In this document: positions 3,954 through 45,172 of the stretch, piece by piece
How the letters are laid out: each line of letters opens with the position of its first letter
Position numbering within the stretch: the first letter of the stretch is position 1
Virus record (IMG/VR): IMGVR_UViG_2579778634_000020
Strand: one strand, 5' to 3'
Length of the DNA stretch: 46,724 nt
Source of the DNA: a virus
Lineage: Duplodnaviria > Heunggongvirae > Uroviricota > Caudoviricetes
Translations under genes and position numbers: made by a program
Notes under the pieces: model-generated
The model's input: the letters and a program-made list of their open reading frames with translations, nothing else
Told to the model about the DNA's origin: nothing
Databases searched by the model: none

Positions 3954-6900
3954 TCAGCTGATACTGATGCCTGCGGTGGCTTTCTTCATCACCACAACCA
4001 GCAAATCGCTGATACTTGCTGTGGGATACCAGTCATTTACCAGCCATGCTGACACCGAAAACTCCAGCGTCGTGTGACCGTGACCGGCAGGCATATCAAT
4101 AACGCCACTGTAAATCAGCGTATTATCCAGCGCGGTACGGTTATAAATTTCAGCACCGTTTTTCCGCACTATCAGACGGCATGAGGAGTAAATATCAGTA
4201 TGCTCTCTCTCATGTTTAGCGCCGCTGAATGCCACCGCCGGAATAACAATCTGCCGGTCAAACGGCTGATCGTCATAAATCCTGACGGTAATGGTCCCTG
4301 ATGGCCACCGCTCCGGTGCCCGGGAGTCCCGCGGGAAAGCCTTACCCACTGTTTTGACAATATCGCCTTCAATCTGGTTGGCTGACAGTTTCCCTTTAAT
4401 CTGACAGTTCTCATTTATCGTAACGTTGTTGAGCGTCCCGGCGTTCGCATTCACACTGCCACTGATATCCGCATTTTTAGCGGTCAGCTTTCCGTCCGGT
4501 GTCAGGGAAAAGGCCGGAGGATTGCCGCCGCTGGTAATGGTGGGGGCCGTCAGGCGCTTCAGGAACACTTCATTCATGAATATCTGATCACCCTGACCAA
4601 CAAACATCGGTTTTGTGTTGCCATTCGCAGGATTAATCATCGCAATCCTGTCTGCCGCCAGCAGCACCTGACTCTGCATGCCGTCAGGGGTGTTCTCAAT
4701 ACCGGCACCAATACCCGCGATATAAAGGCGTCCGTCCTGCATCTGCTGCAGCTTCACAGCCCACATGCTGTTCAGGTTATTATTTGTATCAACCTGAACC
4801 TTCTGTATCTGCTGAATTGCAGCACTCTGGTCTTCCAGTTTCTTATTGACGGTCTGCGTGATTTCATTGCTGACATCCGTAATGGACGTCCTGATTTCAG
4901 CCAGGTCAGGCGCAAGCTGACCGTTATCAATCTGCGTCCACAGCTCCTGAGCCAGATGGGTTTTCCCTATCTCGCCTTTGAAAAAATCCAGATAACCGGA
5001 TGCATCATCACTCGGCTGACCAACAGCCTCCACGAATGCCGATTTGCCAACGGTGTTCACACTGCGGATATAAAAGTAATAATCATGGCCCGGTTTGATA
5101 TTGATACTGGCGGCTATCCAGTACAGCGCCGTACCAAGATAGCGTGCTGTGGTTTCAACCTGCCTGATATCCGCAATCCGCTTTTCCGAGAACCAGAACT
5201 CAAACTGTACCGTCGGATCATAAACCGCAAGATGCGGCGTGGCGGTTATCTGAAAATAGCCCGGTGTCAGCTCAATCCGAGACGGCGCTGCCGGTGCGGC
5301 AATCCGGAACGATACCGATGCCGGATCGCCCTGCTGTCCCCACGCATTTACCGCCCGGACTGTCAGCCTGTAGTTCCCCAGCGCCAGTTGCGTGAAGCGG
5401 TATGTAGTTTCCGTCGTCCGGGCCGTGCTGACCAGCCGCTCACTGCCGTCATCCGCTGCCACGGTCAGGCGAAGCATAAAGCTCACCCCCTTCACCACCT
5501 TCGGCGTGTCCCAGCGCGCCAGCACCTGATATTCCCCGCTGTCTGCGGTGACTTCGGCAGTCAGGTGCTGCACCGCTGGCGGCGTGACACCATTCACCGT
5601 GCCGCTCTGGTCGCCGTCAAAGTGCGCCCCGTTATCCACGATGGCCTCTTTTTCCGGCACATGCTGCACGGCGGTGATGGCATACGTGCCGTCGTCGTTC
5701 TCACGGATACTCACGCAGCGAAACAGTCGCTGGCGCAGCGTCGGCAGCTTCAGCCCCCATACGCTGTATTCAGCAACACCGTCAGGAACACGGCTCACTT
5801 TTACCTTCACGCCGTCGGTGGCGGACTGGACCTCCACGCTGACCGGATTGCCATTTCCGTCAACCAGGCTTATCAGCGTGGTACCGGAGGATGGCAGCGT
5901 GATTTCACGGTCGAGCGTCAGCGTCCGGGTCTGGCTGTTCACCGCCAGCACGCGCCCACCGGTGCTGATACCCGCATAGTCATCATCACAGATTTCAATG
6001 ACATCGCCCGGCACATGGCGAAGCCCTTCTGCGCCCACGCTGAAGTCCACGGTCTGCGTTTCCAGCAGTTCTGTTTTAATCAGCCACAGCCCGGCGCGGT
6101 GTGCCTGCCCCCGGCTGGTACAGCCAAAGGCATCCATCTTCGTGACATTACGACCATAACGGGCAATGGCCTGCGTATCTTCAACAAGCTCTGTCGCCGT
6201 CTCCCAGCCGTTGTCCGGGTCAATCCAGTTCACCTCAACGGCATTATGGCGGACCTTCAGGGCGCTGAAACTGTAGCGGAACGGCGCGCCATCATCCGGC
6301 ATCACCACATTACTGCGGTTATAGGTCCACACCTTATCCGACGGCCGGTCCTGCACGAACGTCAGCGTCTGCCCGTTCCATACCGGCATACAGCGCATCG
6401 CCGAGCAGAAATCACTGAGCACATCCCACGCCTTACGCTGTGTGGTCAGCCAGGCATTACAGGTGATGCGCGGCTCCGTGCCGCCAAAGCCGTCCGGCAC
6501 CGACTGGTCGCAGTACTGGCCGATGACATACAGCGCCCATTTATCCACATCCGCCGCACCAAGACGTTTCCCCATGCCGTAGCGCGGGTGGGTCAGCATA
6601 TCCCACAGACACCATGCCATGTTGTTGCTGTATGCTGGCTTAAACGTTCCGTCCCAGATACCGCTGTATTGCCGCGTCTGCGGGTTATAGTTCGACGGCA
6701 CCTGCAGAATGCGCCCGCGAAGATGATAATTACGGCTCACCTGCTGGCTGCCGAACTGCTCCGAGTCCACCTGTACGCCGACCAGTGCCGTGTTCGGGTA
6801 GCACTGTTTCACATCGATGATTTCGGTGTATGACGACCAGAGCGTTTTGTTCTGCAGCTGGTCTGTGGTGCTGTCCGGCGTCATCCTGCGCATCCGGATG

Positions 6901-21399: not shown

Positions 21400-22710
21400 T
21401 TAAATCCGAAGTGATGTGACTCTTCCGGTCGGTTTGACAATAGGGAATTGCTTAACGATGAAATAACCTCCGGCATCATTCGGGTGATCATTGCCAGATT
21501 TTTTATCAGGCTCCCCCTTATCATCCCAGACCTGTTGCTCCAGAGATTCGGCATATACCGGACAACGCTTCACATTAACTTTATAGCGACGCTCACCATT
21601 GGCATTGCAGAACATTGCATTCATTGAGTTAACGCGATCTTTTACTGGCGGGTTCGAGCTGTTCACCACAACGTTAAAACCAGCCTGCTTAAGCTGGGCT
21701 ATATCCGTCGTACTTGCGTTACTTGATTTTCTGGAATCTCCGGAAGCATCTGGATAAATATAAATCTCCCTCACTTTCCGGTAATCATTCCCGTCATACA
21801 GCCAGAAGCGTTCTTTAATGATGCGGATCATATCCGGCGTATCGTAGGCATTGATGATTTCAGTTACCGCACATGGAAGCCCCAAACGCAGCACATGGAC
21901 GATCCCCGCCATCTTTCCAACGTTAAAATCCATCCCAATATAAATCGGCTCCCCTGGCTGCTCCACTTCTTCGCAATTATTCAGTTTCCGGTCAAACTGA
22001 TGGTAAACAGTACCACTTGTCAGGTTAGTAAACTGTCCTCGAAGATAGGCTTTAATCAGCTCTGGAGGGTATGATTCAAGAAGCGAAGGAATGTAATCTG
22101 CTGGCAGGTTCTTTTCATTATCGAAAGTAGATGCCTGCACCAGACCATACAGTGAGGCCAGCTCTGTTTTTTCACGCACGGCTTTAACAAACTGCTCGTA
22201 GACAAATTTGAATCCTTCCGGCGTGGTTGTAACGTCAATACCGTTGCGAAGTCCATCAATCTTATAACGCATACGCGCAATTATCTTGCGCCACGCCGTT
22301 CTGGCTTTTTCCTTCGGCAAAATGTCCAGTTCATCCACCAGCGCATTACCAATTTTGAAACCGACGATCGTTTGTGGCTTCTCCATCGATCTGCAGATAG
22401 TGGTTCCCCGATACTGGCGTCCGTAATAAAAGTGAACCTCTTTATTTCCCTCATTAATTTTTACGTTCAATCCCCAGTCAGCAGCAACTTCTTCCACTGT
22501 AGGGTAAAAAATATCGCGAATTTGGGGATACGTTGGCGCAAAATATCCCTGATTTATACCTGGATGCTCCCAAATCCCCTTGCATATGCCGCCACACCCA
22601 ACCCATGTTTTGCCCGAGCCAAAACCAGCAATATAGGCTTTAAATTTATGGGGCATTGAAAGAAATCGCGCCTGAGGCACATTAAGCGTCGGAGAGATCA
22701 TCTTCATCAC
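21400..22710 (-). CDS. Terminase large subunit (ATPase + nuclease)
   Basis: Walker A AGFGSGKT near the N-terminus; acidic nuclease motifs in the C-terminal half. 436 aa. Confidence 0.9.
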   Translation of the reverse strand: MMKMISPTLNVPQARFLSMPHKFKAYIAGFGSGKTWVGCGGICKGIWEHPGINQGYFAPTYPQIRDIFYPTVEEVAADWGLNVKINEGNKEVHFYYGRQYRGTTICRSMEKPQTIVGFKIGNALVDELDILPKEKARTAWRKIIARMRYKIDGLRNGIDVTTTPEGFKFVYEQFVKAVREKTELASLYGLVQASTFDNEKNLPADYIPSLLESYPPELIKAYLRGQFTNLTSGTVYHQFDRKLNNCEEVEQPGEPIYIGMDFNVGKMAGIVHVLRLGLPCAVTEIINAYDTPDMIRIIKERFWLYDGNDYRKVREIYIYPDASGDSRKSSNASTTDIAQLKQAGFNVVVNSSNPPVKDRVNSMNAMFCNANGERRYKVNVKRCPVYAESLEQQVWDDKGEPDKKSGNDHPNDAGGYFIVKQFPIVKPTGRVTSLRI

Positions 22711-23776
22711 TCCTTACTCTGGCATCAACCACATTAATATTGATCGCCACAGGCTGGGGATGTTCATTATCTTCCACCGTTTCGATCTCTTTGCGCAGCT
22801 TCTGGTTTTCCATTCTGCGCCGTTCAATTTCCAGTTCCTGTAGCCGTTTATCTGCACATAAAGCCCCGCCAGCAGAAAACAAACGCAACAATTCACGCCG
22901 GGCGGCAGCCTTATCCTCCAGCAGGATCTCAACGCCGAATTTTCCGAATTTTGCCCCTGCATATAATTGCCGCGCATCCCCATCAAGCAGAGTGGTATCA
23001 GCCATATAAAGCTGTCCCGTTCCCTCACCGCAGCACTTCGGGCAGTCCGGATTGGGTATGGCGTTATCAACAAAGCCGAGGCCTCCATATTCCGGTTCGG
23101 GTTTGCCATCTCTGGAAGCCTGCGCCGCTGCCTTGTCGAATTCTGCTATATCGCGCCACTGGTAGAGATGATTCTCGCCCCAGCAATAACGGCAGTTAAC
23201 ACGGCGAAATTGTGCAAGCTGATTGGGGTCGGCCAGGACAATGGCCATCAACTGACTCACCAGTAAATCCAGGTCTGCGGTATAGCGTTTCTGGTACTGA
23301 TTGCGGAAGTAGCTGATAGCGCGAAAAACCCTGGCATTTCTAAGCATACGACTGGCGTTGCTGTTAGCTGTCGCACCTTGCCCCTCATAACCGGCTAGTC
23401 GGTACGCCTCTGTCGGCTTTTTCCCCTGAGCAACAAGCATCGCAAACTTAGCCTGCTGGTCAGAAATGCCGAATTCATCGGGACAGAACGAAAATTCCTC
23501 CGCGTCGCCCTCATTCAGGCCCGCATCGAATACTGGCTTTTTTTCCTGAGATTTTTCGTTCCGCTTTTGTGCAGTCTGCGCAGATTTTTTCTGCGCACTT
23601 TTTTGCGCAGTTTTGCGCATTTCTGTCTGCGCATTTTTCGGAGGTTTTTTGATGTAACGACGGGCTGTTGCGTAATTCAGTCCCCTTGCTTCACACCATG
23701 CCACCGGAGATATACCGGAGCGGGTGTATTCAGCAATATACTCCTGCTGCAACGCCCCCCAGTCCGGTCTGCTCAT
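22682..23776 (-). CDS. Terminase small subunit (N-terminal HTH + Terminase_2-like core), unusually long (364 aa) with a C-terminal Cys-rich segment (C..C...CPKCCGEG)
   Basis: N-terminal HTH ISPVAWCEARGLNYATARRYIKK, then AYRLAGYEG...NASRMLRNARV. Overlaps the large terminase subunit. Confidence 0.7.
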   Translation of the reverse strand: MSRPDWGALQQEYIAEYTRSGISPVAWCEARGLNYATARRYIKKPPKNAQTEMRKTAQKSAQKKSAQTAQKRNEKSQEKKPVFDAGLNEGDAEEFSFCPDEFGISDQQAKFAMLVAQGKKPTEAYRLAGYEGQGATANSNASRMLRNARVFRAISYFRNQYQKRYTADLDLLVSQLMAIVLADPNQLAQFRRVNCRYCWGENHLYQWRDIAEFDKAAAQASRDGKPEPEYGGLGFVDNAIPNPDCPKCCGEGTGQLYMADTTLLDGDARQLYAGAKFGKFGVEILLEDKAAARRELLRLFSAGGALCADKRLQELEIERRRMENQKLRKEIETVEDNEHPQPVAININVVDARVRSDEDDLSDA

Positions 23777-23779
23777 CAG

Positions 23780-24031
23780 TTAGTCCTGATTTTTATCCAC
23801 CCTGAGTAGTTCGCGCAGAGCAAAGGCATCCCCTTTTCTGGCAAGCTTAAACAATGCCGCTCGTAACTCGGCTTCACCTTTCGCTCTGCCCTTACGGATG
23901 GCCGCATAAAAATCTGTCATTGCTTCCCGATTTTCTTTCAGTCGGTTCAGATCAACATCCAGAACGTCAGCGATTTGTTGTGCAGTCATCCGGCACGCTG
24001 CCAGAGACTCGACTTTCGAATACGGAATCAT
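23780..24031 (-). CDS. Small HTH DNA-binding protein (83 aa), possibly packaging-associated
   Basis: MTAQQIADVLDVDLNRLKENREAM... is an HTH-like segment; located directly upstream of terS. Confidence 0.4.
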   Translation of the reverse strand: MIPYSKVESLAACRMTAQQIADVLDVDLNRLKENREAMTDFYAAIRKGRAKGEAELRAALFKLARKGDAFALRELLRVDKNQD

Positions 24032-24920
24032 TTGTCACCCCTATTGATATGCAGGGTGTCTTCTTCCTGTATTTTTCGTGAAGGATTTTTACTGCAGCGT
24101 TGTTCCAGGTGACCTGATGGTGAATGCGTTTATGGCTGGCACCCATCAGTGAGATTTTTACGCACGACGGCGCATACATGACGGAGTAAAAACTTTTAAC
24201 GTAGGTTCCGGAATCCAGATACAGCTCGGTCATTCCGCCGCTGTTTTTCTGCGTCTGTTTCTGCCCTAACTGGACAGCACCGATCGTCATGAACAATTCA
24301 CCACAGCGACCGAGATTCGTGTACGTATTCACATCCTCGTTAATGCGCCCCATGAATGAGAACGGTCGATCAACCGAACAGATAAAGCTGTTCATTGCCT
24401 TGCGTTTCACCCACGAAGCATGGCCGCCATTGTCACCAAGAAAATCCCCGCCCTGCGACATAGCGATGGAAAGAGCAGGTATTGATTCGTAGTACGCCAG
24501 CATTTCAGAAAGGATCGCATCCAGTTTCCTTATCGGAAAATAGGCCTGGTCATAGTTGCGATCCACCCGAAACTGGAACTCGTGATAATCATCATCGAGC
24601 TGAATGAAGTATTTACACCCGACCAGTTTTGCCAGGTCGAAACAGGCATTACGGGCGTAAAAAATTGAGCGGCGGTCACCGAAATTATCGGCTTCGTCAA
24701 AACGACTGGCGATATCGGCTTTGGAAAACACCAGCACCTGTTCACCAAATTCAGCCATGTACTGATGCCGTGTCTTATCTTCATCATCAACAACGATAAA
24801 AATTTTCCCGGTATAGCCAGCACGACGCAACGTCCGGTAAGTCAGAACTTTGTCCGGTCGCCCGTGAGTCAGAATAAAGGCGCAAAAATCATCACGCATA
24901 TTCCTCCTCCTCACCACCAT
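23967..24920 (-). CDS. Hypothetical protein with a GT-A-like glycosyltransferase signature (beta-strand/DD then DDD motif)
   Basis: FILTHGRPDKV...KIFIVVDDED ... YFIQLDDDYHEF resembles the nucleotide-diphospho-sugar transferase fold. Weak inference. Confidence 0.35.
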   Translation of the reverse strand: MVVRRRNMRDDFCAFILTHGRPDKVLTYRTLRRAGYTGKIFIVVDDEDKTRHQYMAEFGEQVLVFSKADIASRFDEADNFGDRRSIFYARNACFDLAKLVGCKYFIQLDDDYHEFQFRVDRNYDQAYFPIRKLDAILSEMLAYYESIPALSIAMSQGGDFLGDNGGHASWVKRKAMNSFICSVDRPFSFMGRINEDVNTYTNLGRCGELFMTIGAVQLGQKQTQKNSGGMTELYLDSGTYVKSFYSVMYAPSCVKISLMGASHKRIHHQVTWNNAAVKILHEKYRKKTPCISIGVTNDSVFESRVSGSVPDDCTTNR

Positions 24921-25683
24921 GCATGATCTCCACCATGCGCTGCGTCATCCGGACAAATCCATTTTCAATAGCCTGCTGATAATCAATGATCACCAGCGCC
25001 GACTCCTCGAAAAAACACTGAATTTCAGCGGGGGCGTGAGCGTAATAGTCCGCAATTCTGCTGAAATTAAACACCGTGTGACGTTCTGCCGCACACAGGA
25101 GGAATTTCTCAATATCAGGCTCAAGAGACGCCGAACGTATCCGGCTGATCAGCTCCTGAGTTTTCGTATCGTCGTACAGTTCACTGATATCCGGTTTACC
25201 GCCCGACGGCTCATAAACAGGCGTATCAATTTTCGTCGTATACGGCTCCTCCTCATTTCCTGTACCGGGCAAAACATCCGTCAACAGTTCATCAATTTCT
25301 GTCGGGATGAAGCCTGTCAGGGAGACATCAAAATCAGCATTGATTAGGTCCGACAGCTCCATCCGCAACAGATCTTCATCCCAGCCAGCATTCATCGGCA
25401 GGCGATTATCTGCCAGGCGGTACGCCTTTTTCTGCTCATCCGTCAGGCCAGACAGAACAATGACCGGAACAGAATCCATTTTGAGCATTTCAGCCGCCAT
25501 AACACGACCGTGACCCGCAATAATTTCGCCCTTTTCGTCAATCAGCACCGGATTAGTCCAGCCGAATTGCTTAATACTTTCTACCAGTTGTGCCACCTGC
25601 TCAGTACTGTGCGTCCTGGCGTTGTGCGCATACGGTGACAATTCTTGTAATGGGCGATAGACTATCTTTAATTTCTCGCTCAT
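24892..25683 (-). CDS. ParB-like nuclease domain protein (ParB/Srx N-terminal domain)
   Basis: N-terminal KIVYRPLQELSPYAHNARTHSTEQVAQLVESIKQFGWTNPVLIDEKGEIIAGHGR is typical ParB-N (GxxR). C-terminus acidic. Confidence 0.7.
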   Translation of the reverse strand: MSEKLKIVYRPLQELSPYAHNARTHSTEQVAQLVESIKQFGWTNPVLIDEKGEIIAGHGRVMAAEMLKMDSVPVIVLSGLTDEQKKAYRLADNRLPMNAGWDEDLLRMELSDLINADFDVSLTGFIPTEIDELLTDVLPGTGNEEEPYTTKIDTPVYEPSGGKPDISELYDDTKTQELISRIRSASLEPDIEKFLLCAAERHTVFNFSRIADYYAHAPAEIQCFFEESALVIIDYQQAIENGFVRMTQRMVEIMHGGEEEEYA

Positions 25684-25700
25684 ACAGCCTTGCTTTATGA

Positions 25701-25734
25701 ATAAAACGCACCCCAGCAGCCAGTGCTACTGGGG
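25701..25734 (-). terminator. Hairpin (CCCCAG...CUGGGG) + U-rich tract downstream of trkG
   Basis: Seen in sequence. Confidence 0.45.
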
Positions 25735-25820
25735 ACGGAGGTATTGCTGGTAAAGTTAGGTATTGGATCAATGAGTGAGTCAACATAATATTAAACTCAC
25801 AATTATAAATCAGCCATATA

Positions 25821-27278
25821 TTAGGAGCGCCAAAAAAAACCTGAAAACAATATAATAACAGGATAAATTTCAAGGCGACCAAGAATCATAGCTATGCACA
25901 TTAAACATTTTGCAATGTCATTAAGCACTCCGAATGACGATGCAGTAGCCCCAAAACCTAATCCCATATTATTAATACATGCAGCCACTGTTGCAAATGA
26001 TGTAAGAAAATCATATCCCATACCATTTAACACCAGTATAAAAAACACCGTGAAGAGAGTATAAAGAAAAAAGAAACTCCATACAGACCTCATTACACGA
26101 TCTGTAACTATCTTCCCTCCTACATTTACACTCAACAACGCTCTGGGATGAGAAAGCTGATTTATCTCGTGTTTGCTTTGTTTGAAAAGTATAAGAAATC
26201 GAAGTGACTTAATTCCACCACAAGTTGAACCTATACATCCCCCAAAGAAACTTGACAACAGCAAAAACACTATCGTGTGCGTGGGCCAACTTGCATAATC
26301 CTGCGTAGCTAAACCATTATCAGTGAGCATGGAGCTGGCAAGAAAAAACGAATGAATAAAACTTCCATGCAAGTCATACATACCTATATGCCAGACCTGG
26401 AAAGAGGTAACAATGATCACCCCTAAGGCTATTAACAGAAAGAAACGAAGTTCAATATCTCTGATTAAAGGTTTTATCGTTTTCCTGCTAATAACAATAT
26501 ACCAAAGAGTGAAGTTGAAAGCCGATAGCAGGGAAAAAGAACCAGCCACCAGCTCAACCAAATAGTTATTAAAATATCCGATACTCTCGCTATGAGTTGA
26601 GAAACCACCAAGCGAAACTGTGGAAATCCCGTGACAAATAGCATCAAACAAAGGCATTCCTGCAAGTCTATAACAGACAATACAAGCAATACCTAATAAA
26701 GAATAAGTTATCCACAGTGTCCGTGACGTATCGGCCAGGCGGGGAGTGAGTTTGTCATCCTTAAATGGCCCCGGCATTTCTGACTGATAAAGCTTTGCAC
26801 CACCAATACCCAATAATGGCAATACAGCAACCGCCAGAACAATAACTCCTAAACCACCTATAAAATTTAACTGTGACCGATAGTACAAATATGCCCGAGG
26901 TAATGAACTAACATCATCAATTACAGTTGCTCCTGTTGTTGTTATTCCAGAAACCCCTTCAAACAGAGCATCAATGAACGTTAAATTAAGTTCTGAGTCA
27001 ATCCATAAAGGGAATGCACTAATAACAGAAAACAAAATCCAAAACATTACAATTATAATAAACCCATCACGGGTACGTAATTGAATGCCAGATTTCTTAG
27101 TTGTATACCACGCTCCGCCACCAATGCAAAAAAATATAACGAAAGTTATAAAGAAAACGAACAGGCTTTTTTCTTTATAAAACAATGCTACAACCATTGG
27201 TGGCAACATTGAAAGACTATAGAGCCAAACCAGGAACCCACACATATGAGTAACAACTCTTACATGAGATGTATTCAT
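25821..27278 (-). CDS. trkG: Trk-system K+ uptake protein TrkG (TrkH/KtrB family); prophage cargo gene. Start taken at MNTSHV.
   Basis: 485 aa polytopic membrane protein matching Rac-prophage TrkG of E. coli K-12 as I recall it. Much lower GC than the flanking phage genes. Confidence 0.9.
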   Translation of the reverse strand: MNTSHVRVVTHMCGFLVWLYSLSMLPPMVVALFYKEKSLFVFFITFVIFFCIGGGAWYTTKKSGIQLRTRDGFIIIVMFWILFSVISAFPLWIDSELNLTFIDALFEGVSGITTTGATVIDDVSSLPRAYLYYRSQLNFIGGLGVIVLAVAVLPLLGIGGAKLYQSEMPGPFKDDKLTPRLADTSRTLWITYSLLGIACIVCYRLAGMPLFDAICHGISTVSLGGFSTHSESIGYFNNYLVELVAGSFSLLSAFNFTLWYIVISRKTIKPLIRDIELRFFLLIALGVIIVTSFQVWHIGMYDLHGSFIHSFFLASSMLTDNGLATQDYASWPTHTIVFLLLSSFFGGCIGSTCGGIKSLRFLILFKQSKHEINQLSHPRALLSVNVGGKIVTDRVMRSVWSFFFLYTLFTVFFILVLNGMGYDFLTSFATVAACINNMGLGFGATASSFGVLNDIAKCLMCIAMILGRLEIYPVIILFSGFFWRS

Positions 27279-27415
27279 ATCTAAATATTCTTTCAATTAT
27301 AACCACCTTGCTGCAATATTATGATTATACTGTATAAAATTTAACTCCTCTTAGATCTTACTTCACTGTTCCTTATGAAACAATCATCAAAATGAATCAT
27401 ATTGTAGTTAAGATT

Positions 27416-28707: not shown

Positions 28708-28915
28708 CTCCGAGAGTTCGGATGGTGCTAAGTGTAAGATTCAGGCTCTCAGGCTTGCTAACAAGAAGTCGAGGATGTTTCCGGAGCCTAACAACGAAAA
28801 AGCCCCGGGACATGCCGGGGCCAGATGGAGTGCCAGATTAAGCTTCTGGCGGTATATACTCGTGTTTGATATCGTTAAATCGCCAAAAGTAACAATTCAA
28901 ACAAAGAGGATTTTT

Positions 28916-29077
28916 ATGTCTGAAAAAAACAAACCACAAGGTGAAAATAAACCTCAGCACCCCGTGGCACCAAAACCAACTCCAACACAAAGTACTACAG
29001 ACTTTGCTACACGTCGTGTTTTTGTTGGAGATTCTGCCGACTCAGTCATTGAACATATAAAAAAACAGCCGAGATAA
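28916..29077 (+). CDS. Small hypothetical protein (53 aa) on the plus strand, convergent with and overlapping the 3' end of the 189-aa membrane protein gene
   Basis: RBS AGAGGA 7 nt upstream. MSEKNKPQGENKPQHPVAPKPTPTQSTTDFATRRVFVGDSADSVIEHIKKQPR. Confidence 0.4.
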   Translation: MSEKNKPQGENKPQHPVAPKPTPTQSTTDFATRRVFVGDSADSVIEHIKKQPR

Positions 29078-29615
29078 ACATCGCCGCTACCGGAGCAAGG
29101 ATGGTATACATCCTTGCTTTATCGAGACTCGTGCGGATTTTCTCATTTTCCAACAGTAACTCTCTTGCTGTATCACTCAAGTCAACAAGGCGATACCTTC
29201 GTATAAGCGGCAATAACTTATCAGGTCCTAAATATCCTGCATCAGCGAATATTTTAAAGCTCGAGGGCTCCATATCCTTATATTTTTCATGATATAGATG
29301 ATCAGGAGGGGCATTGATCAGGCCCCTAACCTTCACAGATAAACCAGTACATACCAAGTAAATGGCGCACCATGTCCATAGTAATGTAAATGTGGTAATT
29401 CCGGCGGTGAGAAAATCGAAATTAGTTTTCTGTGTCAGCAATAAAAAAGATGAACCAATTCCAACAATCTGAATGTTCAGAAGTTTGTATCCATTCTCAA
29501 CATTGGTTTTGTTAGAAAGATGAATCTCTCGTATCGTCTCTTCCCCTTGTTTTTCAAGATAATCGACGAGCTCATCATCTACTCCTAAAAAATAATCTTT
29601 AGGTAGTTCTCTCAT
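29046..29615 (-). CDS. Hypothetical membrane protein (3 predicted TM segments) in the moron slot between tR' and the holin
   Basis: 189 aa. TM candidates LLNIQIVGIGSSFLLLTQ, FTLLWTWCAIYLVCTGL and ILAPVAAMFISAVFLYV. No recognisable family. Confidence 0.55.
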   Translation of the reverse strand: MRELPKDYFLGVDDELVDYLEKQGEETIREIHLSNKTNVENGYKLLNIQIVGIGSSFLLLTQKTNFDFLTAGITTFTLLWTWCAIYLVCTGLSVKVRGLINAPPDHLYHEKYKDMEPSSFKIFADAGYLGPDKLLPLIRRYRLVDLSDTARELLLENEKIRTSLDKARMYTILAPVAAMFISAVFLYVQ

Positions 29616-29722
29616 CTCACCTCCACATCCTGTACTGAAAACAATTTTACCAGAATGTCTCGATTCTAGGTATTCCGCCAGGAATCGCGCTCCAGAAATG
29701 AAACATCAGGTTCGCCAGTACC

Positions 29723-29753
29723 AGAAACAACAAAACCCGCTCAATGGCGGGTT
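29723..29753 (-). terminator. Candidate tR' late terminator (AACCCGC-CAUUGA-GCGGGUU-UUGUUGUUUC) about 85 nt downstream of Q
   Basis: Seen in sequence. Correct position for the Q-antiterminated terminator. Confidence 0.6.
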
Positions 29754-29836
29754 CTGGTAAAGTTCATGCGCTTGGTTCGCCTCGCGATACAGCTTTGCGA
29801 AGCATACCGGAATTGAAGCAGTTTATGCGTAAAAAA
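29754..29836 (-). promoter_or_regulatory. Candidate late promoter pR' / qut region between the Q stop and tR'
   Basis: TTGATT ... TTCAAT with 17-nt spacing on the minus strand. Inferred by analogy with lambda. Confidence 0.3.
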
Positions 29837-30379
29837 TCAAGCTATTTTTTGAGCAAATGATTCTCGCATGGGAATATATAGGGCATACTCAGCAACAGCC
29901 AACCAATTAGCAATTCGCTTTTCGCATGTGCTAAAACACCACTCAGGATGTGCATCATTTAGCAATTCAGCCATTTTGCGCTTAGTCATCCCCCGTCCTT
30001 CATACCGTTGCCGGAGGACACTAATCAATCCAGGATGCTCTGCCAGCACCTCACTTATGACTCTATCAATACATAACGCCTCTGCATCAGTACAATGCGC
30101 CAGCCAGGTCTTTTGCTTGCCATTGATCATCTCTCGCAAAAACGCTTCCAGCTCAGGTTTCTCTATTCCCGCTTTTTTCATCCTGCGCAGGGCTTCATTG
30201 ACGGCTGTTTTCGTCAATTTTTTGGATGCCAGCAACTGGTTAAACATATTTCCCGTCTTACCGCCGCCAATATACGACCAGCGCCCCCACATGCGCAGTT
30301 TTCCCTGAATCCAGACACTTTCCAGCGTGGTGAGACGAAGGTGTTCCCCGCTTTTGCCTGTATTTGTTGGGTAAATCAT
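29837..30379 (-). CDS. Late antiterminator Q-family protein. Start taken at MIYPTNTGK, with RBS AAGGAAGG; the ORF-track extension to 30499 is likely not translated.
   Basis: Position upstream of pR'/tR' and the lysis genes. Its ATG overlaps the stop of the upstream gene (ATGA). Phage antitermination Q-like sequence. Confidence 0.6.
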   Translation of the reverse strand: MIYPTNTGKSGEHLRLTTLESVWIQGKLRMWGRWSYIGGGKTGNMFNQLLASKKLTKTAVNEALRRMKKAGIEKPELEAFLREMINGKQKTWLAHCTDAEALCIDRVISEVLAEHPGLISVLRQRYEGRGMTKRKMAELLNDAHPEWCFSTCEKRIANWLAVAEYALYIPMRESFAQKIA

Positions 30380-31730: not shown

Positions 31731-31883
31731 TCACTCCTCAGGTTCGTAAGCTGTGAAGACAGCGACCTCCGTCTGACCGGTTCGGATTTGTACCTCGCAG
31801 AAGTCTTTCCTTGTTACCAGTGCCATCACAACGACGGTAATACAGATGACAATCAGGGCGGTTAACATCGTCTTTTGCTGCAT
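31731..31883 (-). CDS. hok: Hok/Gef-family type I toxin (50 aa)
   Basis: MQQKTMLTALIVICITVVVMALVTRKDFCEVQIRTGQTEVAVFTAYEPEE closely matches Hok/Gef/RelF toxins (conserved LVTRKxLCEVRIRTGQTEVAVFTAYEPEE). Confidence 0.85.
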   Translation of the reverse strand: MQQKTMLTALIVICITVVVMALVTRKDFCEVQIRTGQTEVAVFTAYEPEE

Positions 31884-32000
31884 CACAGCCTACTTACCCT
31901 TACCTTTCGTTCAAGCGGTAAGGTCACTTTTTCTGTTGTGTGCTAACCAACAAACCTCTTTTATCTGCATTAAAAATCGTTATCATGTCATCCTCAACCT
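31884..32000. promoter_or_regulatory. hok leader region expected to carry the mok overlapping frame and the antisense Sok RNA gene
   Basis: By analogy with the hok/sok loci. The minus-strand upstream sequence contains a GTG-initiated frame ending at TGATG overlapping the hok start. Confidence 0.35.
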
Positions 32001-32031: not shown

Positions 32032-33861
32032 ATGAGCACTTCCGCATACAAGAGCAAAATTCGAACACTCCAGTGCGCGTTAAAAAACGGTGAATTTGAA
32101 CCATTCATACAACATATCCGTTTTCCATACTTTAAAAATATAGAGCAGAATGCAAGGATCGATTTTCAGTTCCCTATAACGGCTTTAGTAGGAAAAAATG
32201 GAACTAATAAAAGTTCTGTTATCAAAGCGCTATTTGGTTGCCCACATGGTAAAAATATAACTCGTTATTGGTTCACAACTGAAACAGATGAGTTTCCTGA
32301 CCTAAAACTTGCTGATGGCAGTTCTCTTAAACCTAGATATATATATGGATATAAAAATGCTGATGGCCGTTTAGTTGAAATACTCCAAGCACGTATCAAT
32401 GCTACCAAGAAAACAATCGATTATTGGGAAACAAGTCGACCATCTGTTGGTGATAACATGGAGAGTATTTCGGATGATCTGGGTGCTAATAGTAATGCAA
32501 CCAGATGGAAAAAAATCAAGAAGGGATTGGTTTTCCTAGATTTCAGATCGGAAATAAGTGCATTTGATAGATGTATGTATCACTCTGATTTTAAATTAAG
32601 AAAGAAGAAGAGTGGTGTATTAATTACAAAGCAAGACTATATCAGAAGCAAATCTAAATATATAAAGAAAGCTTTTGATGAAAAGCTAAGTAATTTAAGA
32701 CTCTGGGGGGCGGAAACCATTGTTAAAAATATAACCTTGGCGCCAGAACTAGTTGAGCACGTCTCATTTATATTAGGGAAAAAATATAAAGTCATTAAAT
32801 TTCTTGAGCATCGGTTATTTGGAACCAGAGGAGGAACCGCTTTACTTTCAACTGATAAGTTGAACTATACAGAAGCGTTTGCTGGAAGTGGTGAATTTGC
32901 AATAGTTTCACTAATACTCAATATTTATTCGGCCAAACCTAATTCATTAATTCTTCTTGACGAACCAGAAGTTTCACTTCACCCTGGTGCACAAAAAAGG
33001 ATGATGGATGTTCTGTACTCTATTGTTGAGCAGAAAAAACATCAAGTGGTAATATCAACCCATTCTCCTGTTATTGTGAACACTCTTCCCAAAGATGCCA
33101 TTAAATTATTTGTTTTTGATGAAGAGAGTGAAACAGCTAAAATAGTTCAAAATATAGCACCGGATGAAGCTTTTATAGAGCTAGGGCATGATATTAACAA
33201 GAAAACAATAATTGTAGAAGATAAATTAGCTAAAGCAATTATAGATAAAGCGATTAAAAATGATGAAAGATTAAGCTTATCATTTAGTGTAAGTTATATA
33301 CCAGGTGGTTCGGAGACCATTTTAAGCAAGCATCTTCCCAGTTACGCTGTGGTAGAACGCAATGATATTTTGTTTTTACTTGATGGTGATAAAAACAAAA
33401 AAATAAAACCAGTAAGAATTAGTGAAATTGCTGATGCTGATTTAGTTAATACAATGTGCAAATATTATGGTTGCGAGTTAATTATCAATGCCAGTGGTAG
33501 TAATGGCAAAAAAAATGAACAAGAATCTAATAGACTCAAAAGGCAAGTGCTTGAGTATGCATTCAATAAAGTGCAGTATTTACCATTTGATACTCCCGAA
33601 CAATTACTCATTGAAAAGGCAATTACGCCAAGTGAAAAAGAAATAATTGATTCACAGACCTGGAGTTCTAATGATCCAGAACTGTATAAGAATCAAATAA
33701 GATTATTAGCGCAACACCTGTATGATAAAGAAGAAGTAAATGCAGAGGAAATTTTTTGCCTCCAACAAATGATGACCGCAAGACTTAAAAATGAATTGCC
33801 TGAATTTATAAAAATAAGAAAAATAATTACTCAGGCTCTTGACCGTGGTATCATTAGGTAG
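32032..33861 (+). CDS. OLD-family nuclease-like protein: N-terminal ABC/AAA_21-type ATPase + C-terminal Toprim domain
   Basis: Walker A VGKNGTNKSS; Walker B/D-loop LILLDEPEVSLHP; H-loop VVISTHSP; C-terminal Toprim-like IIVEDKLAK (conserved Glu) and FLLDGDKN (DxD). 609 aa, close to P2 Old (586 aa). About 33% GC versus roughly 50% in the flanks. Confidence 0.75.
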   Translation: MSTSAYKSKIRTLQCALKNGEFEPFIQHIRFPYFKNIEQNARIDFQFPITALVGKNGTNKSSVIKALFGCPHGKNITRYWFTTETDEFPDLKLADGSSLKPRYIYGYKNADGRLVEILQARINATKKTIDYWETSRPSVGDNMESISDDLGANSNATRWKKIKKGLVFLDFRSEISAFDRCMYHSDFKLRKKKSGVLITKQDYIRSKSKYIKKAFDEKLSNLRLWGAETIVKNITLAPELVEHVSFILGKKYKVIKFLEHRLFGTRGGTALLSTDKLNYTEAFAGSGEFAIVSLILNIYSAKPNSLILLDEPEVSLHPGAQKRMMDVLYSIVEQKKHQVVISTHSPVIVNTLPKDAIKLFVFDEESETAKIVQNIAPDEAFIELGHDINKKTIIVEDKLAKAIIDKAIKNDERLSLSFSVSYIPGGSETILSKHLPSYAVVERNDILFLLDGDKNKKIKPVRISEIADADLVNTMCKYYGCELIINASGSNGKKNEQESNRLKRQVLEYAFNKVQYLPFDTPEQLLIEKAITPSEKEIIDSQTWSSNDPELYKNQIRLLAQHLYDKEEVNAEEIFCLQQMMTARLKNELPEFIKIRKIITQALDRGIIR

Positions 33862-34925
33862 TGATTCTGGATGCAGAGGGAAAAATGAAAAAAATCAAAG
33901 TGTTTGACTTCTTTTCCGGTTGTGGTGGAACCAGCCAAGGTTTCCATCAAGCTGGAATGGATATTGTTTTTGGCCTCGATTTCGACGTTGATGCAGCCAG
34001 TTCATTTCGTGCAAATTTCCCGCAGGCTGCTTTTATTAACTCGGACATTAGGTTAATCGACAACAATGCCATAAACAAGTTAGTAAAAAAACATCGTAAT
34101 GATTACATTCTTTTTTCAGGATGTGCGCCTTGTCAACCGTACTCTAAGCAAAACTCAAATAAGAAAAATGATGATCCACGATTAGATCTATTAAAGGAAT
34201 TCAGTCGCTTTGTAGAGCATTATATGCCTGATTTTATTTTTGTTGAAAACGTGCCAGGAATGCAAAAGTTTAACAAAAATGAAGGAACATTCATGATGTT
34301 TTTAGAAATGCTTTCATCAAAGGGATATAGTGTAGATTATAAAGTAATGCCAGCTGCGTGGTACGGTGTACCACAGACGCGAGAAAGATTAGTGCTCATT
34401 GCATCCAAGGATTTTTATGTCGCATTGCCTTCTCCTACACATGGGGTTGGAAATACTCCCTATTCAACAGTAAAGGACTGGATCGCTAATTTACCGAAGA
34501 TAGAAGCAGGAGAAAAGCATAATAGTATTCCTGATCATGAAGCTGCACGCTTATCAGAGCTTAATTTACGTAGAATAAAATGCACTCCTGAAGGTGGAAG
34601 TCGAGAATTTTGGCCAGATGAATTGATTTTAGAATGCCATCGTAACCATAAAGGGCATACAGACGTATATGGACGTTTGAGTTGGGACAAACCAGCCAGC
34701 GGACTAACAACTCGTTGTATTAGCTATTCAAATGGACGTTTTGGACATCCAACACAAAATCGAGCAATATCGGTTCGTGAAGCAGCGTGTCTACAAACAT
34801 TTCCTTTGGATTATAAATTTATTGGTTCTTTGCAATCTCGGGCTCGTCAAATAGGAAATGCGGTCCCTCCGAAGATGTCTGAAACGATTGGAAAACATTT
34901 GCTTAATATAATCAAAGCCTCCTAG
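33861..34925 (+). CDS. DNA (cytosine-5)-methyltransferase. The ORF-track start is a GTG overlapping the upstream TAG; the probable start is ATG 33885 (MKKIKVFDFFSGCGG) with RBS AGGGA.
   Basis: Motif I FFSGCGG, motif IV GCAPCQPYS (catalytic Cys), motif VI ENVPGM, motif X QIGNAVPP. Confidence 0.9.
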   Translation: MILDAEGKMKKIKVFDFFSGCGGTSQGFHQAGMDIVFGLDFDVDAASSFRANFPQAAFINSDIRLIDNNAINKLVKKHRNDYILFSGCAPCQPYSKQNSNKKNDDPRLDLLKEFSRFVEHYMPDFIFVENVPGMQKFNKNEGTFMMFLEMLSSKGYSVDYKVMPAAWYGVPQTRERLVLIASKDFYVALPSPTHGVGNTPYSTVKDWIANLPKIEAGEKHNSIPDHEAARLSELNLRRIKCTPEGGSREFWPDELILECHRNHKGHTDVYGRLSWDKPASGLTTRCISYSNGRFGHPTQNRAISVREAACLQTFPLDYKFIGSLQSRARQIGNAVPPKMSETIGKHLLNIIKAS

Positions 34926-44796: not shown

Positions 44797-44991
44797 ATGA
44801 GATATGACAATGTTAAACCATGTCCATTTTGTGGTTGTCCATCAGTAACGGTGAAAGACATTTCAGGATATTACCGGGCAAAATGCAACGGATGCGAATC
44901 CCGAACTGGCTATGGTGGAAGTGAAAAAGAAGCGCTCGAAAGATGGAATAAACGAACCACTGAAAATATTAATGGAGGCGTTCATGTATAA
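44797..44991 (+). CDS. ralR: RalR (Lar) restriction-alleviation protein / type I TA toxin (64 aa from MRYDNVKP)
   Basis: MRYDNVKPCPFCGCPSVTVKDISGYYRAKCNGCESRTGYGGSEKEALERWNKR... matches RalR. Confidence 0.9.
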   Translation: MRYDNVKPCPFCGCPSVTVKDISGYYRAKCNGCESRTGYGGSEKEALERWNKRTTENINGGVHV

Positions 44992-45172
44992 AATTACCGC
45001 TACAATTGAAAAGGAAGGTGGCACTCCTACTAACTGGACAAGATATTCAAAATCTAAACTAACGAAATCAGAATGCGAAAAAATGCTCTCAGGTAAAAAA
45101 GAAGCAGGCGTTTCCAGAGAGCAGAAAGTAAAACTGATAAATTTTAATTGCGAGAAACTTCAGTCCTCGTGA
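44972..45172 (+). CDS. ydaC: YdaC (DUF1187) small protein
   Basis: ...MYKITATIEKEGGTPTNWTRYSKSKLTKSECEKMLSGKKEAGVSREQKVKLINFN... The start codon is uncertain (44972 or 44984); the ORF-track start at 44912 overlaps ralR. Confidence 0.6.
   Translation: MEAFMYKITATIEKEGGTPTNWTRYSKSKLTKSECEKMLSGKKEAGVSREQKVKLINFNCEKLQSS

Follow-up and report, generated by a model that had tools for sequence, protein, structure and literature searches.

The sequence analysed here, referred to below as the window, is the whole 46,724-nucleotide (nt) stretch of the viral record IMGVR_UViG_2579778634_000020 (Caudoviricetes), and its minus strand holds the late region of a Rac-like lambdoid Escherichia coli prophage. 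Between the genes for a Q-type antiterminator and a holin lie two convergent, overlapping genes, one encoding a predicted inner-membrane protein of 189 amino acids (aa), M189, and the other a hydrophilic protein of 53 aa, S53. We found that M189 and S53 are both real genes and almost obligately paired, that the pair is a mobile unit, and that the promoter-like and hairpin elements accompanying it are conserved. The architecture of this cassette of approximately 870 bp, which is kept from Escherichia to Yersinia, Proteus-group bacteria, and Pantoea, is well supported. With a probability of roughly 0.35, we propose that temperate enterobacterial phages carry it as an autonomous, mobile cargo of two genes (a moron), the products of which would act as a toxin-antitoxin (TA)-like exclusion or abortive-infection (Abi) pair with a ratio that is flipped late. 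The two genes are as follows.

28916..29077, plus strand: S53, an open reading frame (ORF) of 53 aa with AAAGAGGA 5-7 nt before its ATG
29046..29615, minus strand: M189, an ORF of 189 aa with an ATG start, encoding the predicted inner-membrane protein (isoelectric point (pI) 5.65)

The coordinates of both ORFs, the ribosome-binding site of S53, and the overlap of the 3' ends that the initial annotation had reported all hold, the overlap being 32 nt (29046-29077). The comparison covered 113 loci from phages, viral contigs, and genomes. Of the 47 distinct full-length M189 variants among them, 46 face a convergent small ORF (47-68 aa) that overlaps M189 by 20-35 nt, and this recurrence takes the convergent arrangement far beyond chance. 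A distant, AT-rich M189 homologue of 186 aa also faces a convergent 47-aa partner with the S53 pattern, and both of the S53 relatives examined for their context (2/2) adjoin an M189 gene. Furthermore, the pairwise identities of M189 and S53 correlate with each other (r = 0.82).

S53 is basic and rich in proline and glutamine (pI 9.69; grand average of hydropathy (GRAVY) -1.23) and contains no hydrophobic segment. Its sequence pattern runs from MSxxNKPxGExKPQ through a Pro/Gln-rich stretch to DF(A/S/T)xxRxxVGDSA(D/E) and a basic tail. Differences are distributed over codon positions 1, 2, and 3 as 31%, 24%, and 45%, and indels are in frame. From this codon-position bias and the conservation of S53 in 46 of 47 variants, we conclude that S53 is a real coding gene, as had been supposed from the window alone. 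The single-sequence AlphaFold model of S53 is mostly coil with one helix at residues 41-49 (predicted local distance difference test (pLDDT) score of 67). A profile search retrieved only relatives of 47-66 aa, from the same taxa as those of M189, and S53 had no match in Pfam, NCBIfam, or PADLOC. RefSeq gives a 71-aa form of S53 that starts from a GTG at 28862, the extra 18 codons of which are conserved as DNA; because these upstream codons are out of frame in one genus, Trabulsiella, we rejected the longer form and took the ATG at 28916 as the start.

The M189 family consists of approximately 100 sequence clusters, nearly all of them exactly 189 aa in length, with identities down to 42% and 25 invariant positions, and is found in Escherichia, Klebsiella, Citrobacter, Morganella, Providencia, Proteus, Serratia, Yersinia, Pantoea, and Sodalis. 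A profile search over 1.8 billion representatives gave 102 relatives of 160-200 aa, with no annotated relative among the matches. M189 had initially been described as a membrane protein of no recognizable family; this stood for Pfam, NCBIfam, and PADLOC, in which it had no match, but the M189 and S53 ORFs do fall in function-unknown PHROG families, 11870 and 14506. A profile search of M189 against PDB sequences gave nothing meaningful, and Foldseek found no match below E = 0.3 for the cassette proteins in PDB and BFVD. The families 8xMP (PF24838; E = 0.02-0.1, two distant members), DUF4131, and DUF6249 were considered as relatives of M189 and rejected, the matches being sub-threshold and inconsistent.

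In the AlphaFold model of M189 (pLDDT 83), long helices at residues 14-62, 68-92, and 134-188 form one bundle, half of it in the membrane and half outside. The predicted layout comprises an acidic N-terminal cytoplasmic helix, a hairpin of two transmembrane segments (TM1 and TM2), and, after a helical segment in the cytoplasm, TM3 at the C-terminus. The model thus supports the three helices of the earlier three-TM description, although TM1 (approximately residues 44-62) is only moderately hydrophobic, with a hand-calculated Kyte-Doolittle mean of approximately 1.4 compared with 1.65 for TM2 and 2.01 for TM3; we regard M189 as a predicted three-TM protein. Lysine and arginine residues number 18 on the side of the N-terminus and residues 94-167 and one on the opposite side, on which basis both soluble parts are placed in the cytoplasm. 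Conservation peaks in the acidic N-terminal helix and in TM1 (IVGIGSSF).

The initial annotation had held that absence or disruption of M189 in most relatives would speak against its reading of the slot. We found M189 intact in most carriers, and inactivated copies recur in four independent settings (loci L105/L106, 2501-2887; L103, 2501-2863; L007, 4001-4569; and L104). In Escherichia, M189 is broken by a 1-nt frameshift near codon 102; in a widespread Klebsiella pneumoniae prophage it has a nonsense codon at position 121; and the copies of Leclercia are frameshifted. S53 is intact in all of these. At L104, S53 is frameshifted too, in an A7 run at codons 3-5.

The distribution of the cassette is that of a mobile unit. 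In 5426 complete E. coli genomes, M189 was found in 224 and the S53 region in 227 (approximately 4%), so that the presence/absence polymorphism for which a check had been suggested does exist. The cassette is missing from approximately 1,700 genomes that do match the flanking Q-gene or holin sequence, and the two of these that were inspected carry other cargo behind the same Q module. The upstream neighbour may be a Q gene of PF06530/DUF1133, PF03589, or PF06323, or an ORF6N, Rha, or KilA-N gene. Downstream stand holins from four Pfam families, and in most loci the holin gene lies 145-460 nt from the M189 stop codon, whatever the holin family. When located among tail genes, the cassette occupies the order major tail gene, DUF6246 gene, KilA-N or Rha gene, M189, S53, one gene, and tape measure gene, and in a distant relative it follows a Sipho_Gp157 gene in an early region. 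Without exception, M189 reads with the surrounding operon and S53 against it. At locus L087, a second allele with 58% protein identity is found between the same flanks, with the switch in similarity inside the conserved non-coding block. The pair had been read as cargo of the late-operon slot. It is indeed present in the Q-holin slot, but the same cassette also resides in tail and early regions and has its own promoter-like elements, which makes it an autonomous mobile cassette and more than late-operon cargo.

Some features of the neighbourhoods vary with location. The cassettes among tail genes (L103 and L111-L113, from K. pneumoniae and E. coli) are always preceded by a KilA-N or Rha/ORF11CD3 gene, and an ORF6N gene precedes the cassette at some Q-holin loci; anti-repressor-like genes of these kinds (KilA-N, Rha/ORF11CD3, and ORF6N) may travel with the cassette. 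At the Klebsiella-type loci L051 (3820-4127) and L055 (3820-4053), three to four tRNA genes (Met, Phe, Thr, and Gly) stand between the cassette and the holin gene, in place of the terminator.

The non-coding parts of the cassette contain the following elements.

29644..29659, minus strand: M189 promoter-like element GACATTCTGGTAAAAT, with the -10 TAAAAT at 29649-29644, TG at 29652-29651, and a predicted start at approximately 29637
28866..28897, plus strand: 32-nt block TGATATCGTTAAATCGCCAAAAGTAAC upstream of S53, with the extended -10-like TGATATCGT at 28867-28875 and a predicted start at approximately 28882
28859..28908, minus (M189-sense) strand: hairpin A, imperfect, approximately 50 nt, its arms containing the complement of both the Shine-Dalgarno sequence and the -10 region of S53, with the conserved apical loop CUUUUGGCGAUU
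28832..28850, minus (M189-sense) strand: hairpin B, GCCAGA-loop-UCUGGC, present in most loci
28796..28822, minus strand: holin-side intrinsic terminator from a terminator scan, with an 8-bp G+C-rich stem (28822-28801) and a T run

On the M189 side, nearly all of the 44 non-redundant loci compared carry CATTCaGGTAAAAT approximately 35 nt upstream of the ATG, and the distant homologue L099 has GGTATAAT at this position. Similarity between cassettes starts approximately 12 nt upstream of the conserved GGTAAAAT, and a conserved CA follows downstream at the right distance. On the S53 side, the 32-nt block hardly varies even between genera with protein identities of only approximately 50%. Within its TGnTAT(C/T)GT, the TG and the TAT..GT are fixed and n varies, and this extended -10-like element is, by consensus, probably the S53 promoter. 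Two other promoters for S53 were considered and rejected, a sigma-70 -35/-10 pair with TAACAA as the -10, the final base of which is never T, and a sigma-54 promoter at CTGGCAC, the spacing of which is wrong.

The 32-nt block is at the same time the core of hairpin A, which folds in all 27 unique variants with predicted energies of -9 to -20 kcal/mol. The M189-sense strand gives the more stable structure in 34 of 39 sequences (mean -12.0 kcal/mol vs -8.7 kcal/mol for the opposite strand), and 73 G.U pairs occur on this strand against 22 on the other. We analysed the pairing on anchored, ungapped segments. In the ungapped alignment, 79% of the cells pair, compared with 26-52% when the partners are slid, and the covariation score of 0.172 exceeded that of 500 out of 500 shuffles (0.122 +- 0.011), with double-sided changes at four pairs. 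The 5' arm of hairpin A, which is complementary to the Shine-Dalgarno region of S53, co-varies with the sequence upstream of the -10. Because an S53 mRNA from the promoter in the 32-nt block would lack this pairing partner, selection for pairing must act on the M189-sense RNA. A palindromic operator was also considered as an account of the block; an RNA hairpin was judged more likely, since the arms co-vary and the G.U pairs point to one strand only.

Hairpin B has compensatory variants, read by eye from the alignment, namely GCCAGT/ACTGGC in Morganella, GCCGCC/GGCGGC in Trabulsiella, and U.G pairs at L075 and L078. The holin-side terminator, a second minus-strand terminator between the S53 promoter and the holin gene that had been missed initially, is conserved in position with compensatory changes and forms the border of the cassette toward the holin gene. 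The 3' region in the window thereby presents three consecutive hairpins, the last of which is the terminator with its U tract (-38 kcal/mol). Searches of Rfam at gathering and permissive thresholds found nothing in the slot, and blastn with 11-nt words and positions 28790-28915 as the query matched only 272 genomes, those inspected all having cassette-type loci. A locus of E. coli FDAARGOS_1289 (L107, 2500-3125) matches positions 28790-28906 of the window, with the same terminator, hairpin B, 32-nt block, and holin. There the module drives an unrelated, counter-oriented ORF of 92 aa (MASFTVRVELVG...), which overlaps a convergent late-strand ORF of 76 aa (MKFYELSS...) by 15 nt; neither ORF had a Pfam or PADLOC match. 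That the block, hairpins, and terminator are shared with an unrelated 92-aa ORF indicates that the control module is portable. The 76-aa gene also precedes M189 at L087.

The slot itself is bounded by the following features.

30379-29837, minus strand: Q-type antiterminator gene (DUF1133/PF06530), the upstream flank
29873..29902, minus strand: candidate late promoter pR', TTGGCT-18-TATATT, a consensus match inside the 3' end of Q
29731..29756, minus strand: tR'-like intrinsic terminator from a terminator scan, with a 10-bp stem and a T run, between Q and M189
28698-28357, minus strand: lambda-type holin gene (PF05106), the downstream flank, followed by the lysozyme gene, Rz/Rz1, and trkG

The slot between Q and the holin gene of lambdoid phages is known to carry Shiga toxin cargo and also regulatory small RNAs (sRNAs). 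Similarity of the window to same-Q E. coli prophages ends at approximately 29721-29732, right after the tR'-like terminator; the terminator is therefore part of the Q/pR'/tR' module, and the cargo begins past it. The candidate pR' lies within the segment common to other DUF1133-Q prophages and belongs to the slot context, outside the cassette. Other same-Q E. coli prophages carry different cargo at this position, which agrees with the variable slot between Q/tR' and holin that had been proposed. In one of them, the slot contains a tRNA-Met gene with DUF6645, DUF1378, and DUF826 genes, and the tR'-like terminator sequence also occurs at L107, upstream of different cargo. A further prophage with the same Q type (L102, 205-2515; E. 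coli VTB96816v) has in this slot two genes with a TolA C-terminal domain and an interrupting IS3 element.

We infer from this anatomy how the cassette may work, including the transcription starts, the antisense silencing, the M189-S53 interaction, and the biological function. Each gene would be driven by its own promoter-like element, both at a low level in the lysogen. The M189 transcript would run antisense through the entire S53 gene, its ribosome-binding site, and its promoter and end at the terminator before the holin gene, and its 3' region would fold into hairpin A, with a loop and arms able to pair with the S53 mRNA at its 5' end. The holin-side terminator would end the M189-sense transcript unless the polymerase is Q-modified. 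Upon induction, Q-modified polymerase from pR' would pass through tR', the cassette, and both terminators and raise M189, while promoter occlusion and antisense pairing would silence S53. An antisense M189 transcript combined with Q readthrough thus predicts that induction raises M189 and lowers S53, flipping their ratio. Antisense regulation had already been suggested from the overlap and remains a reasonable reading, because the conserved overlap comes with a conserved hairpin on the antisense strand that lies over the S53 translation start and promoter-like element. In the scheme that we favour, S53 would be a labile inhibitor of M189, which would perturb the inner membrane, and the pair would act in a TA-like manner to exclude or abort the infection of other phages and would be released in the late phase of its own phage.

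To our reading, such a regulatory design is unusual, since late transcription should invert the product ratio, and the compact cassette, which has not been characterised before, is widespread and directly testable. If it proves to be a defence, TA, or lysis-control module, it would represent a new protein family in phage-host conflict and a clear case of control by convergent transcription in a moron. Even with a modest function, a portable promoter-hairpin-terminator module would explain the near-invariant non-coding block across mosaic phages. Literature searches on accessions, PHROG ids, and topics turned up no description of M189, S53, or the RNA element, and WP_001208722 and WP_224482377 are not listed in the DefensePredictor supplements.

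Several known systems resemble the cassette in part. Phage morons include lambda bor and lom, HK97 gp15, and stx in Stx phages. Like these, the cassette is inserted between conserved genes in the Q-holin or tail slot, is present or absent among close relatives, and has a promoter-like element and a terminator; unlike these, it consists of two convergent overlapping genes with a conserved antisense-strand hairpin, and its products do not resemble characterised moron products. It fits the moron definition by its terminator and by presence/absence polymorphism, which was found at the module border; as to a promoter of its own, it has conserved promoter-like sequences that may serve as one. Membrane-effector TA and Abi pairs such as lambda RexA/RexB and the type I system hok/sok share with it the combination of a membrane protein and a small partner, the prophage location, the antisense complementarity over a translation start, and the recurrent inactivation of the large partner with the small one kept. 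The cassette differs from them in that its genes form no operon, S53 is not hydrophobic, and M189 resembles neither RexB nor Hok nor any PADLOC model. Excludons of Listeria and the pR/pL switch of coliphage 186 represent convergent-promoter switches, and the cassette would share with them, judging from its anatomy, a long transcript antisense over a facing gene and its promoter and a predicted reciprocal expression. In phage phi80, Tai and Ati are a defence gene and a counter-acting gene whose expression is tied to Q-controlled late transcription (Nat Commun 2024, PMC11364771). A similar shift of balance between lysogeny and the lytic phase under Q is what we propose for the cassette from its anatomy; in contrast, Tai targets tail assembly and involves no membrane protein, and gene order, orientation, and sequences are unrelated.

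The cassette does not fall into the established classes. Type II TA genes form one operon and belong to known superfamilies, whereas the genes here are convergent in 46 of 46 pairs and neither M189 nor S53 belongs to such a superfamily. With its GRAVY of -1.23, S53 is not the hydrophobic toxin of type I systems; on the other hand, the M189-sense strand is predicted to form the co-varying hairpin whose sequence is antisense to the 5' end of S53 with its Shine-Dalgarno sequence, which would suit the antisense component of a type I system. M189 has no holin match in Pfam, where its neighbour matches PF05106, and the cassette also lies away from lysis genes, so that a holin/antiholin pair is not indicated. 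For known exclusion or defence families, PADLOC v2 gave 0 families for both proteins and Pfam gave none.

We consider a TA-like exclusion or Abi function the most likely one because the pairing is strict, the cassette is autonomous and mobile, alleles have been replaced within identical flanks, and M189 has repeatedly been lost with S53 kept. The other conflict cargo of the prophage (Hok, RalR/RalA, and an OLD-like nuclease with a methylase) was also counted in its favour. Several observations weigh on the other side. The sole exception to the pairing is a Salmonella branch, a cluster of 88 sequences, in which an intact M189 homologue of 192 aa occurs without S53; S53 is accordingly not universally needed to tolerate M189. 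Neither protein showed likeness in sequence or fold to any toxin, antitoxin, holin, exclusion, or defence protein in the libraries searched. That M189 is found broken more often than S53 is approximately what the 3.5-fold difference in gene length would lead one to expect. Because the control module is shared with the 92-aa ORF, the antisense element appears to be general and gives no evidence of a specific relation between M189 and S53. The fold z-scores of hairpin A are modest (mean -1.5), and the sequences compared are mutually related. Finally, convergent transcription predicts mutually exclusive expression, whereas a classical antitoxin needs co-expression. A more specific and somewhat more doubtful version is that the cassette represents a new widespread family in which a disordered protein of approximately 50 aa restrains a three-helix membrane effector (for Abi, exclusion, or lysis control), with the balance set by convergent transcription and a built-in antisense RNA rather than by operon autoregulation; it would then be a portable switch with a counter-oriented gene, reused by lambdoid phages.

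The location of most cassettes directly upstream of the holin gene, whatever the holin family, would also suit an accessory of lysis timing, in which late M189 would work with the holin through membrane potential or triggering, S53 made in the lysogen would keep leaky M189 harmless, and the pair would serve the lytic cycle of its own phage. The anatomy, with M189 co-transcribed with late genes under Q antitermination and late transcription shutting S53, would be compatible with such a role. We regard it as unlikely, given that the cassette also occupies tail- and early-gene slots far from the lysis genes, has its own promoter-like element, and is separated from the holin gene by a terminator; moreover, most phages with the same holin have no cassette, and no similarity to holins or antiholins was found. 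No better in our estimate is superinfection exclusion by M189 alone, through a block of genome entry as with HK97 gp15 or T4 Imm, with S53 as an unrelated or regulatory passenger. In its favour, M189 is predicted to reside in the inner membrane, has a promoter-like element to itself, and occurs at classic moron positions, including the tail-gene region, where the HK97 gp15 moron is also located, and the Salmonella branch does carry M189 without S53. However, the near-obligate pairing and co-divergence with S53 favour a joint function, the conserved residues are mostly in the cytoplasmic N-terminal helix and TM1 with almost no exposure to the periplasm, where an entry block might act, and no likeness to known exclusion proteins was found.

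The roles might instead be reversed, with S53 as an active small toxic or host-modulating peptide checked by the cis-antisense hairpin RNA in type I TA style and M189 as its membrane partner, target, or immunity protein. Nowhere in the cassette is the DNA better conserved than around the start of S53, the antisense hairpin over the Shine-Dalgarno sequence and 5' end has a conserved apical loop with UUGG and resembles the antisense control known from hok and further small toxin genes, and Hok and RalR/RalA occur in the same prophage. This appears quite improbable to us, as S53 is hydrophilic and lacks the hydrophobic helix typical of type I toxins, an unrelated 92-aa ORF is under the same control module, and the retention of intact S53 where M189 is broken is the opposite of what a harmful S53 would lead one to expect. 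Equally improbable is that the functional product is an sRNA derived from the 3' untranslated region (hairpins A and B with the terminator) that acts in trans on host or phage mRNAs, the proteins being secondary. For such an RNA speak the three consecutive, strand-specific, co-varying hairpins that lead to a U-tract terminator and the portability of a module common to cassettes with different proteins. A precedent in other E. coli prophages is PasA, an sRNA of 84 nt described as arising by processing at the 3' end of a longer transcript, which lies upstream of and adjoins a holin-lysozyme operon (bioRxiv 10.64898/2026.05.13.724894). The cassette shares with PasA/PasC a structured RNA and an intrinsic terminator directly upstream of the holin gene, but its structured region is antisense to the start of a protein-coding gene, and the indirect route of blastn and Rfam gave no sign of sequence similarity, the element matching only cassette-bearing genomes and no Rfam family. 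In addition, the M189-sense strand showed no conserved promoter from which such an RNA could start, and M189 and S53 cannot be secondary because both are clearly under purifying selection. That S53 is an annotation artefact and M189 decaying junk in a defective prophage might be suspected from the missing structural genes and the inactivated M189 copies. The comparative sequence data effectively refute this, since ORFs, lengths, and motifs are kept across many genera, including in inducible or complete phages such as the vB_EcoS-6xx phages, and S53 has a codon-position bias and in-frame indels.

The remainder of the window supplies the prophage context. Upstream of Q, the late strand carries two further genes.

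31265-30666, minus strand: DUF1367 gene
30666-30376, minus strand: DUF1364 gene

The sole match at the Rfam gathering threshold in the window was the RalA sRNA (44990-45168, minus strand; 218 bits). RalA is the antitoxin of RalR/RalA, the type I system of Rac, and its presence confirms the identity as a Rac-like prophage. According to the annotation of an identical RefSeq locus, the prophage is defective (22708-27296), with Rz/Rz1 followed by trkG, a truncated tail-fibre assembly gene, and the chromosomal sitBCD genes and with no head or tail genes.

In the Salmonella branch, the 192-aa M189 homologue matched 0 PADLOC families. At locus L017, a co-directional ORF of 348 aa (4590-5636, plus strand), which is uncalled in the source annotation and had no Pfam or PADLOC match, begins 11 nt past the homologue. 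In the window, the inverted repeat ATTCC-GCCA-GGAAT (29673-29690, minus strand) lies between tR' and the M189 promoter-like element and was seen only in the E. coli allele. A gene for a toxin of the Hok/Gef family (31731-31886, minus strand) is situated between the DUF1367 gene and a nuclease gene, so that besides the cassette at least two known type I toxin systems (Hok and RalR/RalA) are aboard the prophage. The nuclease is an OLD-like ATPase-Toprim protein (32032-33861, plus strand) that matches PADLOC HEC-04 (E = 1.7e-34) and also AriA, PtuA, and GajA-type models. It adjoins a C5 cytosine methyltransferase gene (33885-34925, plus strand; MTase_II, E = 1e-96), and the two, inserted in the early region, are likely a pair of defence cargo genes.

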